Source: a virus (taxonomy: Duplodnaviria > Heunggongvirae > Uroviricota > Caudoviricetes). From it: a stretch of 50,870 nt of DNA. Below, piece by piece: positions 17,250 through 18,612 of the stretch (position 1 is its first letter; each line of letters opens with the position of its first letter). Location: IMG/VR virus record IMGVR_UViG_2645727821_000011; one strand, given 5' to 3'. Below the pieces are notes generated by a model. It worked only from the letters and a program-made list of their open reading frames with translations, was not told the origin of the DNA and did not search any database. The position numbers and the translations under genes are program-made.

Positions 17250-17372
17250 TTATTAACCTCATTACTGGTTGGGAAATAAGGTTGCGGTGCCGGGTGCCTC
17301 CCGGTGTCCTTTGGCTGGTTATCCACCGTGGACGGGGAAATAAGGAGAAATAATGGACAGATATAACCATTT

Positions 17373-17476
17373 CCCCGCGTGCGCTTAGCCGCATTCACCG
17401 CAACGGAAAGAGCATTCCTGGTGGACCTGTAGATTGGGATATGAACCCGTTACAGGAGAATGCTCTTACCTGTTAC
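17373..17476 (-). repeat. long imperfect hairpin element, unit 4 (about 17-bp stem with bulged A, T-arm-like GGGTTCATATCCC in loop, trailing GTGAATGC hairpin)
   Basis: arms AACAGGTAAGAGCATTC / GAATGCTCTTTCCGTTG. Confidence 0.4.
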
Positions 17477-17640
17477 GTGCTCCGTTTCGTGGAGCTAACG
17501 GCGGGTGATCGGGCCGCACCAGACTGGACTTATTTCAGCGTTATGCTCATGCCAGAGAATCAAACTGTGATGGTCGGTGCTGAACTCCGACACAGGGTTG
17601 TAGCAAGCCCCGCAAAGCGCGCACTACTGTAGTTGCGGCA

Positions 17641-17752
17641 CATCAGCCTGTGCATTCACCACAATGTTGAGAACACTGGTTGTCACGCTGCAACGCAACA
17701 TTTATTCGTAGATTGGGATATGACCCCGTTACGCCAGTGTTCTCAACGTTGA
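17641..17752 (-). repeat. long imperfect hairpin element, unit 3 (different stem sequence CAACGTTGAGAACACTGG / CCAGTGTTCTCAACATTG, same architecture and trailing GTGAATGC hairpin)
   Basis: 18-bp stem with one mismatch; GGGGTCATATCCC in loop. Confidence 0.4.
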
Positions 17753-17880
17753 AGTGCCGGTTACGGTTCCGGCCAGGCCTCTTCCTCAACGGGGTGTTCT
17801 CCATACGGACTACCGTTTATTGGTCGTTCCTGCGGTTTATGTTGTGAAGCCAGATGCTTATCTTCTGGTTGCTTCAAAGA

Positions 17881-17968
17881 GCTGCACTTCATCACAACGG
17901 TAAGAGCACTCGATGCATTTAAGCCAAGCCCCATAAGGGAGAATGCCCTTACCTGTTGTGTTGTGATG
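17881..17968 (-). repeat. long imperfect hairpin element, unit 2
   Basis: arms CACAACAGGTAAGGGC / GCTCTTACCGTTGTG with bulged A and a G-U compatible substitution. Confidence 0.4.
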
Positions 17969-18065
17969 ACCGGTGCTGATCTCCGGCTTGCGGTTATTTC
18001 AGACTCTCACGGGCGTTTAATTGCCCCGCCGAACAGCTCTTTTCCGCAATAGCTGCAATGTCTTT

Positions 18066-18175
18066 CGCGCATCAGCCTGCGCATTCATCACAACGGTAAG
18101 GGTACTTCGTAGGGATTCGAACCCTCTGCCAAGCTCGGCGATCTCCGACGTCGCAAAATACCCTTACCTGTTGTG
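18066..18175 (-). repeat. long imperfect hairpin element, unit 1, directly 3' of tRNA-Thr; loop has canonical T-arm AGGGTTCGAATCCCT
   Basis: arms CACAACAGGTAAGGGTA / TACCCTTACCGTTGTG with bulged A. Confidence 0.45.
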
Positions 18176-18176
18176 C

Positions 18177-18252
18177 TGGTGCCGATTAACGGACTCGAAC
18201 CGCTGACATCCTGCTTACAAGGCAGGCGCTCTACCAACTGAGCTAAACCGGC
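18177..18252 (-). tRNA. tRNA-Thr (anticodon UGU)
   Basis: cloverleaf with anticodon loop CTTGTAA, T-loop GGTTCGAGTCC, encoded CCA. Confidence 0.85.
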
Positions 18253-18254
18253 AT

Positions 18255-18330
18255 TGGCGATGGTGGATGGATTTGAACCATCGACCCGTTGATTAACAGT
18301 CAACCGCTCTAACCGCTGAGCTACACCATC
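18255..18330 (-). tRNA. tRNA-Asn (anticodon GUU)
   Basis: cloverleaf with anticodon loop CTGTTAA, T-loop GGTTCAAATCC, encoded CCA; 2 nt from tRNA-Thr. Confidence 0.85.
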
Positions 18331-18539
18331 ACTTGCCGGGTACGTCTCCGGCGAGGGCTTCCACCTCCGTATGCTTTTCGGCGCACCGCGCCCTGGCTGC
18401 AATTCGGTAACAGGGGATGCATAACCCTGGCTTCCAGCGTGATTAGCGCTTTCAGCATGACGGGATATACCCGTAAATTCGTGGAACTGTACCCAAAGTG
18501 CTGTTAAGCACCGCTGTTACGCTGAAAAGAAAACGCAAC

Positions 18540-18612
18540 AGGAAAGGACGCTGACCAACAGATGGCCACTTCTCGTTCATCTGGTTAATCACACCAGCGC
18601 CCTTACCTGTTG
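18540..18612 (-). repeat. long imperfect hairpin element, unit 0, upstream of the tRNA pair
   Basis: arms CACAACAGGTAAGGGCG / CGTCCTTTCCTGTTGCG. Confidence 0.3.

Follow-up and report, generated by a model that had tools for sequence, protein, structure and literature searches.

The five long imperfect hairpins on the minus strand of a P1-like phage belong to a family of structured phage RNAs that is widespread and unannotated, and the homology of these hairpins to one in the Qin prophage carried by E. coli K-12 indicates that they are probably RNase III sites separating small RNAs and tRNAs on one transcript. Besides the 50.9-kb window (the whole stretch of viral DNA that was analysed; 99.8% identity to JL22), the family occurs in lambdoid prophages, in both early-left and late leaders, in the tRNA cluster of a Suspvirus and in a Taipeivirus.

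A hairpin array in the ban operon leader

The array lies on the minus strand, the one transcribed in the leader of the C1-controlled ban operon, 3' of the C1-controlled promoters P1ban and P2ban. Its features, in the order of transcription, are as follows.

18804..18889, minus strand: annotated in P1 as 'dicF-like region'; intrinsic terminator 18804-18826
18617..18793, minus strand: tmRNA-tag-like element directly 5' of unit 1; GGGUUUUCGUC, A-rich stretch, tag frame and two hairpins
18534..18616, minus strand: unit 1; arms CACAACAGGTAAGGGCGCTGG / TCAGCGTCCTTTCCTGTTGCG, apical stem-loop with GGUGUGAUUAACC; z −5.0
18177..18330, minus strand: tRNA-Asn(GUU) and tRNA-Thr(UGU), between units 1 and 2 (ARAGORN, Rfam)
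18089..18175, minus strand: unit 2; arms CACAACAGGTAAGGG / CCCTTACCGTTGTG with a bulged A; z −5.7
17959..18095, minus strand: spacer between units 2 and 3; (G)AUGAAUGC, short hairpin GCGCAGGCUGAUGCGC, then CCGGAGAUCAGCACCGG-UCAUCAC
17893..17960, minus strand: unit 3; tip UCCCUUAUGGGGCUUGGCUUAAAUGCA, alternative register 17889-17970; z −4.1
17657..17756, minus strand: unit 4; stem CAACGTTGAGAACACTGG / CCAGTGTTCTCAACATTG, which differs from the others, and a three-way junction; z −5.0
17560..17656, minus strand: spacer after unit 4; GUGAAUGC, hairpin GCACAGGCUGAUGUGC, then CGGAGUUCAGCACCGACCAUCACA; direct repeats D2 and D7
17399..17478, minus strand: unit 5; arms CGTAACAGGTAAGAGCATTC / GAATGCTCTTTCCGTTGCG, tip ACGGGUUCAUAUCCCAAUC; z −4.1
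17283..17402, minus strand: STnc100-like multi-branch tciA leader; Rfam STnc100 39.2 bits, fold z −2.4

A first-pass annotation had proposed five long imperfect minus-strand hairpins here, and all five are present within a few bases of where it had placed them; what it had described as loops of 35-55 nt are structured tips, not open loops. Every unit folds far better than its dinucleotide shuffles (z about −4.0 to −5.7; 0 of 200 shuffles as stable), and the 5' arm motif has six matches in the window against 0.9 expected, with only one match outside the locus. E. coli RNase III substrates contain a double-helical stem of about two turns (at least 20 bp, irregularities tolerated), and the basal stems of all five units, at 19–25 bp with one bulge and one mismatch, have the length of such substrates.

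The hairpins abut tRNA ends. Unit 2 begins 1 nt 3' of the encoded CCA of tRNA-Thr, a spacing found in P1 and P7, and in SUSP2 a hairpin stands directly 5' of tRNA-Arg; unit 1 lies upstream of tRNA-Asn, its end separated from that gene by 203 nt. ARAGORN and Rfam revealed only the three annotated tRNAs in the window and called no unit. Scanning of positions 17200–19100 gave no promoter-like site, and the array contains no terminator except the one behind the DicF-like RNA. Family members are always located in heavily transcribed non-coding leaders and in sense orientation, namely the P1 ban leader, the lambdoid pL leader, the lambdoid late leader past tR' and the Suspvirus tRNA cluster.

The units share a covarying, strand-specific stem

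Generic local folding returned many unrelated structures and was dropped; motif-anchored extraction and covariance models were used instead. In a MAFFT alignment of mixed subtypes (A2) the P1 arms were 2 columns off and pairing was understated, and its place was taken by A5, an alignment based on the model, and A7, which covers the arms only. All five units align in sense orientation to the family consensus arms, CACAACAGGUAAGRGCAUU and AGUGCUCUUNCC-GUUGUG.

In A7 (23 members including units 1–5), which was assembled by hand with a structure derived from the same sequences, 88% of the cells in the basal stem were paired, and changes on both sides were seen in 15 of the 19 pairs; no shuffle out of 500 equalled this, and slid controls reached 42–52%. 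Since three rows of A7 are out of register, the pair count is lowered by them, not raised. Three irregularities recur along the stem: a bulged A some 7 nt away from the base (partnerless in 16 of the 23 members), a mismatch about 10 nt into the stem (position unpaired in 18) and a U.G wobble (17). The three-way-junction form exhibited 97.5% pairing and compensatory changes in 21 of 37 pairs, again with 0 of 500 shuffles equal and with slid controls at 44–61%. Thus the conserved structure and covariation that the first-pass annotation had proposed to look for are both present in relatives.

A covariance model for the three-way-junction subtype (R1), trained on lambdoid copies only, matched unit 5 (39.3 bits, E 5e-8) and unit 4 (28.6 bits, E 3e-5) and nothing else in the 50.9-kb window, so that units 1–3 were left unmatched. 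Sense-strand scores were about 110 bits, compared with 25–40 bits for the antisense strand; the conserved U.G becomes an A.C mismatch on the opposite strand, which supports strand specificity. Rfam searches by gathering score and by E-value, a check that had been suggested from the outset, gave no known family for any unit, and the microRNA-precursor matches that Rfam returned were rejected as generic long-hairpin matches. Depending on the block, between a tenth and half of sequenced E. coli genomes contain these building blocks, which are present in unrelated virulent phages as well.

Comparison of the units altered several details of the earlier description, which had assigned shared arms to units 1, 2 and 4 and a different stem to unit 3: the 5' arm CACAACAGGTAAGGG is common to the first three units (18614, 18175 and 17960), and the divergent stem is that of the fourth. 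An unpaired A, supposedly the same in the sharing units, was recovered in units 2 and 5, the latter having both the bulged A and the mismatch, but not in unit 1, where the 3' arm is TCCTTTCCTGTTGCG, the A has a partner and, three pairs deeper into the stem, U.U is mismatched. Twelve ortholog variants of unit 1 include a basal C-G to U-A change and retain the internal mismatch (U.U to C.A). A G.U change does exist, but in the 3' arm of unit 3 (CTCTTACCGTTGTG), not in unit 2, which alone has the exact CCCTTACCGTTGTG. The GTGAATGC-type motif with a short hairpin, said to follow each unit, follows units 2, 4 and 5, occurs as a variant (GATGAAGTGC) after unit 3 and is lacking after unit 1.

Spacers, leaders and the adjoining tag element

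The 137-nt spacer between units 2 and 3 is 97–98% identical to the early-left leaders of lambdoid and Stx phages, and both of its ends are inside hairpin arms; the spacer after unit 4 has the same layout (fold z +0.6). Taken as 17958-18086 and 17560-17660, neither spacer folds better than its shuffles, so the STnc100-like label refers, for the spacers, to shared motifs only. The closing stem of the tciA leader, UGCGGUG...CACCGCA, overlaps the final bases of the unit 5 3' arm, and its architecture is as in the Qin dicB leader; its score of 39.2 bits is below the 47-bit gathering score of STnc100 (RF02076) and does not place it in that family. The other spacers of the window gave no STnc100 match.

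The element at 18617..18793 carries the frame GCA AAC GAU GAU CUG AUG AUG GUA GCG GCC UAA (18734-18702), which encodes ANDDLMMVAA. All 20 distinct variants of this tag have exactly 10 sense codons and a stop, follow AN(D/E)x...L(A/M)(A/V)A and show synonymous changes. The UAA lies in the loop of GGC-UUAACA-GCC, and the frame has the Ala resume codon, the A-rich stretch and the stop in a hairpin loop that characterize tmRNA tag frames. The element is contiguous with the hairpin array, and in other phages such hairpins flank the tag frame.

The tRNA-like domain of tmRNA consists of an acceptor stem with G3:U70, a T arm and a 3' CCA. For the tag element no such domain was found by ARAGORN, by Rfam or by eye; neither the window nor 16 related loci gave a tmRNA call in ARAGORN, and the Rfam tmRNA models reached only 11–26 bits. 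It is conceivable, though we hold it improbable, that the array and the tag element are the two parts of a split, tmRNA-like system borne by the phage. In such a system, RNase III stems would free an mRNA-like piece with a translated 10-codon tag (ANDDLMMVAA in P1), and a tip of the unit 2 type would become the tRNA-like piece after trimming and CCA addition. If so, the phage could use a tag of its own to rescue or re-tag ribosomes that stall while early (P1 ban operon) or late (lambdoid pR') transcription is under way. In a weaker version, the initiator-like tips would be decoys for tRNA-cutting defence toxins.

A homologous hairpin at the DicF processing site

The Qin prophage contains a homologue, CCAUAACGCGAAAGCGCAUGG...CCGUGCGCUUCCGGUUGUGG (z −3.6), which ends 124 nt upstream of dicF and shows the same irregularities, along with roughly 70% identity in each arm. 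According to bioRxiv 10.1101/2023.04.14.536235, with reference to Faubladier 1990, the 190-nt DicF species has an RNase III-dependent 5' end. We placed this end arithmetically, 190 nt back from the terminator and not from a published genome coordinate, at position 1446 of L123, inside the Qin 3' arm and 13–14 nt from the stem base. Because the homologue sits at the RNase III cut that forms the DicF precursor, 'punctuation' of a small-RNA and tRNA array is the best reading of the P1 hairpins. The proposal of RNase III processing sites, already made from the first look at the sequence, is thus indirectly supported by the Qin member and by the 19–25 bp covarying stems. The Qin dicBF site (Faubladier et al. 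1990; Ragunathan et al. 2023) is a homologous hairpin that likewise lies in an early phage operon upstream of small-RNA modules; that work did not present the hairpin as a member of a family. P1 differs in having five tandem copies with different tips, and for P1 we infer cleavage, the exact cut positions and any role of the released tips.

The stem, with its three conserved irregularities (bulged A, mismatch and U.G), bears an exchangeable apical module, and by this model host RNase III would cut both stem strands about 13 bp above the base. The long early transcript would be chopped into a DicF-like RNA, a tag RNA, tRNA-Asn/Thr, STnc100-like RNAs and the tciABC-trnI-ban mRNA. The cuts would leave short trailers beside the tRNAs, followed by exonuclease trimming, and would let the tciA leader refold; the tips would be freed as RNAs of 50–80 nt, of which that of unit 2 is predicted to mimic a tRNA elbow and those of units 4 and 5 an anticodon arm of the initiator type.

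The RNase III signals of T7 (R1.1 and others) and the RNase III hairpin of the lambda N leader are also long irregular hairpins in polycistronic phage transcripts. Like these, the P1 hairpins stand between functional units and have internal loops and bulges as part of the putative signal; there is no sequence relationship, however, and whereas the T7 and lambda sites separate mRNAs, the P1 pieces are mostly small RNAs and tRNAs, and conserved tRNA-like tip modules are a feature of the P1 family in contrast to those sites. The processing stalks of rRNA operons and tRNA-like 3' modules of the mascRNA type likewise serve to cut stable RNAs out of long precursors, by way of RNase III stems or of tRNA-processing enzymes. 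The rRNA operon stem encloses its product, whereas here covariation supports local hairpins between products. Pairing of a 3' arm with the 5' arm of the next unit, in the style of rRNA stalks, is possible only where neighbours share arms; arm inspection showed that it does not work between units 3 and 4, between units 4 and 5, or in lambdoid loci with the upstream hairpin CGAAAUCC...AGUUUUCG.

The elements resemble YrlA (RF02553) in having a long terminal stem with a bulge and a distal tRNA-like domain with a T arm. They differ in that the D-like hairpin precedes the T arm, as in tRNA, while in YrlA the T arm comes before the D arm, and in that they are embedded in a polycistronic transcript and have no separate gene. 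We know of no link between the hairpin elements and Ro/Rsr. The Y-RNA-like identity once considered for them did not hold, as the YrlA model matches no unit; its sole weak match (25.6 bits against a threshold of 69) spans two real tRNAs. Integron attC sites have RYYYAAC / GTTRRRY cores, extrahelical bases and a linked integron integrase. They were rejected as a candidate, as CACAAC/GTTGTG misfits the GTTRRRY core and selection on the fold, G.U pairs included, acts on the transcribed strand. The STnc100/PasD prophage small RNAs (RF02076; bioRxiv 10.64898/2026.05.13.724894) share their architecture with the GUGAAUGC-hairpin modules and with the tciA and dicB leaders, whose STnc100 matches of 34–43 bits are all below the 47-bit gathering score; the long hairpins themselves fall outside the STnc100 model.

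Apical tips and alternative explanations

RNase III needs no conserved apical sequence and the tips are strongly conserved, which points to an additional or different partner. The tip of unit 2 is a tRNA-elbow-like module made of a 7-bp acceptor-like helix, a D-like hairpin (GCGA-CGUCGGAGA-UCGC) and a T arm (AGGGUUCGAAUCCCU), and judging from its sequence it resembles a tRNA elbow without the anticodon arm. Having neither an anticodon arm nor a free CCA end, unit 2 does not form a cloverleaf. Of the loop hairpins that the first-pass annotation had called T-arm-like, AGGGTTCGAATCCCT in unit 2 is a consensus T arm, but GGGTTCATATCCC in unit 5 and GGGGTCATATCCC in unit 4, where one junction arm is the anticodon-arm-like ACGGGGUCAUAUCCCAAUC, are closer to an anticodon arm with CAU; its suggestion of tRNA-like RNAs accordingly applies to the tips of units 2, 4 and 5 only. 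The tip of unit 3 is common to a Suspvirus, Felixounaviruses and lambdoid late leaders, matches at 90–95% in the virulent phages and is carried by SUSP2 on a covarying stem.

We regard as unlikely that these tips are the functional part, i.e., tRNA-mimic RNAs that bind or divert some tRNA-directed factor of the host or of a defence system, with the stem as a scaffold as in Y RNAs. Candidates for that factor would be a VapC-type anticodon nuclease that cuts initiator tRNA, MetRS, IF3 or the 30S P site, RNase P and modification enzymes, and the idea is compatible with release by RNase III. It is favoured by the identity of the lambdoid tip, over its 13-nt core GGGCUCAUAACCC, with the E. coli metZ initiator tRNA in the anticodon arm, by the retention of U33, CAU and a purine at 37 in the P1 variants, by the motif ACGGGNUCAUAWCCCAAUC, invariant in 51 copies while every surrounding helix covaries, and by the occurrence of the same tips on different stems across unrelated phage families. 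Homologues of the unit 2 type in lambdoid contigs likewise have invariant D-like and T loops next to a covarying acceptor-like helix (UAUUUUG/CGAAGUA, CAUUGGG/CCCAGUG, CAUUGCG/CGCAGUG). Against this, nothing recognisably tRNA-like is present in units 1 and 3, and the Rfam tRNA and YrlA models and ARAGORN pick out no unit (RF00005: none at E of 10 or better). Outside Enterobacterales, the 19-nt tip motif matches at about the number expected by chance on our own estimate, and none of these matches is in a tRNA gene.

That the elements are decayed tRNA genes or functionless remnants, or else transcription signals such as terminators or put-like antiterminators, seems very unlikely. Their tips do contain T-arm- and anticodon-arm-like pieces, they lie in tRNA-rich regions, and a lambdoid copy is located directly 3' of a terminator, with its 3' flank GGAGA pairing with the U tract; however, compensatory covariation over many lineages points to selection on the fold, the P1 units are not followed by U tracts, an antiterminator is not expected in five tandem copies, and the Rfam search gave no known cis-regulatory family. 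Equally little, if not slightly less, credence is due to an action at the DNA level, in which the repeated inverted repeats would be recombination joints that shuffle non-coding cassettes, like attC or miniature inverted-repeat elements. Relative to the P1 reference, the window contains one extra 196-nt module, which includes unit 3 and whose breakpoints are inside the repeated 3' arm CTTACCGTTGTGATGAA; the 137-nt spacer, 98% identical to lambdoid sequence, starts and stops within hairpin arms, and module order differs among P1, P7, D6 and Ro157. Ordinary homologous recombination between repeats explains the indel, though, and no dedicated recombinase is linked; moreover, the elements are always sense to transcription, the G.U wobbles are conserved with the sense strand about 70 bits above antisense, and the arms covary within a hairpin and are not identical across copies. 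Finally, the P1 reference annotates here only plp (125 aa, TTG start) and upl (63 aa), as noted at first reading, both on the opposite strand, and we find it scarcely credible that these plus-strand proteins are what the region encodes and that the hairpins are incidental. The plp frame of the window is interrupted by an internal stop and broken in two by the 196-nt insertion; in several other P1-like contigs plp is truncated or contains stops, and it runs antisense through tRNA-Thr. In P7, D6 and others upl is absent or cut short, neither ORF is above threshold in Pfam, and the coding potential of the overlapping ORFs is thus not conserved. CRISPRi knock-down showed both to be non-essential; in that screen (PMC10695390) the region was dispensable for plaque formation, a point that also tells against the punctuation reading.

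Implications

On this evidence, what the P1 annotation has shown for twenty years as two small ORFs consists of structured non-coding RNAs in an array. Their building blocks are common in E. coli genomes but are missing from Rfam and from genome annotations. RNase III sites in the stems, if that is what they are, would account for the maturation of phage tRNAs and regulatory small RNAs (DicF, STnc100/PasD-like) from leaders, and exact, testable processing positions are predicted. The conserved tRNA-like tips and the adjacent tag suggest that phage small RNAs, of a kind so far unstudied, interact with the translation or tRNA-surveillance machinery.

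Genomic context of the hairpin array

The window is a P1-like phage-plasmid, and its interval 17250-18950 shares 99.8% identity with Escherichia phage JL22 and 99% with P1. According to the P1 reference annotation, the ban operon starts at the C1-controlled P1ban/P2ban promoters beside dmt, is transcribed from the strand equivalent to the window minus strand, and contains a 'dicF-like region', trnA (Asn), trnT (Thr), tciABC, trnI and ban, in this order. As the first-pass annotation had stated, the small ORFs plp and upl are the sole annotations in the trnT-tciA gap; both lie on the opposite strand. 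ARAGORN and Rfam searches of the interval returned three tRNAs and nothing further. Scanning of the hairpin array revealed no promoter-like site and no terminator except one after the DicF-like RNA; thus the hairpin units are most simply parts of one precursor. Elsewhere in the window, above-threshold Rfam matches were obtained on the minus strand for sok antitoxin RNA (34492-34666, 114.9 bits), C4 antisense RNA (38118-38203, 69.6 bits) and the a1/b1 target of C4 (38272-38324, 55.5 bits).

Five long hairpins form a covarying family

All five long hairpins proposed from the sequence exist, and each, when folded alone, forms one long irregular stem with a structured tip.

18617-18793, minus strand: tag element, directly upstream of unit 1, with weak matches to Rfam tmRNA models; tag frame at 18734-18702
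18534-18616, minus strand: hairpin unit 1
18089-18175, minus strand: hairpin unit 2
17893-17960, minus strand: hairpin unit 3
17657-17756, minus strand: hairpin unit 4
17399-17478, minus strand: hairpin unit 5

The free energies of units 1-5 were 4.0 to 5.7 SD below those of dinucleotide shuffles, none of 200 being equally stable. The 5' arm motif occurred six times in the window, once outside the hairpin locus, against 0.9 expected. Several details of the original description required correction. Three units do share CACAACAGGTAAGGG, but these are the ones starting at 18614, 18175 and 17960; the divergent stem belongs to unit 4 rather than unit 3, and the 3' arm quoted as shared is present exactly in unit 2 only. 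The A described as bulged in unit 1 is paired, with a U.U mismatch three pairs further in. The GTGAATGC motif, said to follow each unit as a short hairpin, was found after units 2, 4 and 5 and as a variant after unit 3, but not after unit 1.

Compensatory pair changes across relatives, the check suggested at the outset, were found in both a covariance-model and an arms-only alignment. A covariance model built from 13 lambdoid copies without any P1 unit gave exactly two matches in the 50.9-kb window, at unit 5 with 39.3 bits (E 5e-8) and at unit 4 with 28.6 bits (E 3e-5). Its fold is a three-way junction consisting of a 24-pair basal stem, an invariant GGG-NUCAUAW-CCC hairpin arm and a variable second arm. 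Across the 51 lambdoid matches scored (45 distinct), 97.5% of cells were paired and 21 of the 37 pairs had changes on both sides; none of 500 shuffles reached any of five measures, and sliding the partners by 1-3 columns reduced pairing to 44-61%. The signal was strand-specific (sense, ~110 bits; antisense, 25-40 bits).

Units 1-3 were included by aligning the two arms with a fixed linker in 23 members, namely the five units, the K-12 Qin prophage, mEp460, several lambdoid subtypes, P7, D6, SUSP2 and T765. Here 88% of cells were paired with compensatory changes in 15 of 19 pairs, in sequences chosen by hand and with a structure derived from the same sequences; three rows are one column out of register, which counts against the result. 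No shuffle out of 500 equaled the observed values, and slid controls gave 42-52%. The irregularities of the stem are themselves conserved, with an unpartnered A at column 8 in 16 of 23 members, an unpaired column 11/39 in 18 of 23 and U.G at column 19/31 in 17 of 23. Unit 1 orthologs in P1-likes exhibited a basal C-G to U-A change while keeping the mismatch (U.U to C.A). The claim that the units are structured RNAs is strong.

Hairpin tips resemble parts of tRNA

In the lambdoid tip, the core GGGCUCAUAACCC exactly matches that of the anticodon stem-loop of the E. coli initiator tRNA metZ, both having three G-C pairs and the loop CUCAUAA; the P1 variants UUCAUAU and GUCAUAU keep U33, CAU and A37. 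A T-arm-like hairpin, noticed already in the first reading, was confirmed in the unit 2 tip as a consensus T arm. This arm and a 4-bp hairpin whose loop, CGUCGGAGA, is invariant both sit on a 7-bp helix extending the long stem. Among unit-2-type tips of lambdoids, both loops are invariant and three junction-side pairs covary (UUG/CGA, GGG/CCC, GCG/CGC). The layout is that of the tRNA elbow, but without an anticodon arm or a free CCA end. Both ARAGORN and the Rfam tRNA model rejected the unit 2 tip as a tRNA, and the Y-RNA-like reading was not borne out, since the Rfam YrlA model rejected this tip as well. The unit 3 tip recurs in Felixounaviruses and Suspvirus with 90-95% conservation, carried by a covarying stem. 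Conservation of the same tips while the stems vary indicates that the tips are exchangeable, individually conserved modules.

A tmRNA-like tag precedes unit 1

The tag frame follows an A-rich stretch and reads GCA AAC GAU GAU CUG AUG AUG GUA GCG GCC UAA (ANDDLMMVAA). P1-likes, SUSP2, T765 and the late leaders of lambdoids (Q to the holin gene) have related elements. The element is present, nearly always without annotation, in 670 of 5426 E. coli genomes; further copies were retrieved via a downstream hairpin, not via the tag itself. In each of the 20 distinct variants the frame consists of exactly ten sense codons and a stop, with the consensus AN(D/E)x-x-(F/Y/M/V)-L-(A/M)-(A/V)-A and synonymous differences including CTG/TTG, TTC/TTT, GAA/GAG, GCA/GCC and GCC/GCG/GCT. 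A hairpin loop holds the stop codon, an arrangement also seen in helix 5 of tmRNA. ARAGORN and Rfam found no tRNA-like domain for the element in the window or related loci. In most lambdoid contigs examined, family hairpins lie on both sides of the tag element, and in some the upstream one bears a unit-2-type tRNA-like tip; the element may represent a split tmRNA-like system. GGUGUGAUUAA in the unit 1 tip recurs in the loop of a small post-tag hairpin, GCCC-GGUGUGAUUAAUAAU-GGGC (L127, the T765 locus, and L237); in the tag elements of lambdoids, T765 and SUSP2, this small hairpin comes before the downstream long one.

Spacers and the tciA leader

Lambdoid and Stx-phage leaders match the spacer that follows unit 2 (17959-18095) at 97-98% identity, and the spacers after units 2 and 4 have a common layout of GUGAAUGC, a short hairpin and CGGAGWUCAGCACCGRYCAUCAC. 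Sub-threshold STnc100 matches were obtained for the tciA leader (17283-17402, minus strand; 39 bits, threshold 47) and the Qin dicB leader (L123, the K-12 Qin locus, 1633-1842; 34 bits, threshold 47), which have a similar STnc100-like multi-branch fold. Both leaders are closed by a 7-bp stem, with one hairpin soon after its 5' strand and another abutting its 3' strand. Because the tciA closing stem uses terminal bases of the unit 5 3' arm, cleavage of unit 5 would free the tciA leader to form.

Distribution of the family beyond P1

The tip motif of units 4 and 5, ACGGGNUCAUAWCCCAAUC, was present in at least 120 IMG/VR contigs and about twenty further Enterobacterales species, with matches at chance level in the remaining genomes. 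A 199-nt lambdoid stretch with the tip-motif hairpin occurred in 2890 of 5426 complete E. coli genomes, beside yfdP or ymfH. In lambdoid prophages the motif lies within a ~100-nt hairpin of the early-left leader, where a DicF-like RNA, its terminator and the hairpin lie in this order downstream of the repressor gene; in the late leader (Q antiterminator gene to holin gene), other family hairpins flank the tag-bearing element. The mEp460 immunity region bearing the family also contains an isrK Hfq-binding RNA match (L002 82-158, 67 bits) and a truncated C4-like match.

In P1, P7 and relatives, a hairpin unit starts 1 nt past the CCA of tRNA-Thr or tRNA-Ser, and in virulent Suspvirus SUSP2 a family hairpin inside the tRNA cluster ends directly before tRNA-Arg. 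An additional tRNA with a long variable arm is present in P7 (L126 1822-1909) and D6 (L124 1707-1793). ARAGORN calls it Ser(UGA), its score against the Rfam tRNA-Sec model is 46.6 bits (threshold 47), and its CCA is followed after 1 nt by a family hairpin. The hairpin of Klebsiella Taipeivirus T765 lies in ~2.6 kb without an annotated gene (L127 473-3108). T765 is a virulent phage of the Ackermannviridae, and this region, which also holds a tag element, an STnc100-like module and more structured sequence, may constitute a long non-coding RNA array.

Probable RNase III processing and alternative readings

Protein coding, transcription signals, decayed tRNA genes and DNA-level recombination joints are less likely explanations of the hairpins. 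Conserved coding in the overlapping ORFs was not found: plp, which runs antisense across tRNA-Thr, is broken in the window by a 196-nt insertion and an internal stop and is interrupted by stops or truncated in other P1-like contigs; upl is missing or truncated in P7, D6 and others. A Pfam search of both gave no match above threshold, and both were non-essential in a CRISPRi screen (PMC10695390). The 196-nt module (17959-18154), absent from the P1 reference, is made up of the 137-nt lambdoid-identical spacer together with the tip and 5' arm of unit 3. Its breakpoints lie within the repeated 3' arm CTTACCGTTGTGATGAA, which points to gain or loss of the module by recombination between hairpin arms.

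RNase III processing, one of the functions first suggested, is backed by the homologue in the Qin prophage (L123 1373-1458, fold z -3.6), upstream of DicF (L123 1583-1635). According to two studies, the 190-nt DicF species has an RNase III-made 5' end and is lost when rnc is mutated (bioRxiv 10.1101/2023.04.14.536235, citing Faubladier 1990). Counting 190 nt back from the dicF end places the cut, by our own arithmetic rather than a published genomic coordinate, at L123 1446, separating G from C in CCGUGCG^CUUCCGGUUGUGG, within the 3' arm of the hairpin and 13-14 nt up from the base of the stem. By homology, the equivalent cut in unit 2 would fall between window positions 18101 and 18100. The RNase III claim is an extension from a single homologous, experimentally studied site.

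The main rival holds that the tips themselves are the functional part, as decoys or ligands for tRNA-recognising proteins, and is compatible with RNase III processing. The best-supported reading is that the units are RNase III stems that would punctuate one polycistronic small-RNA/tRNA/mRNA precursor, with the tips released as small tRNA-mimicking RNAs.
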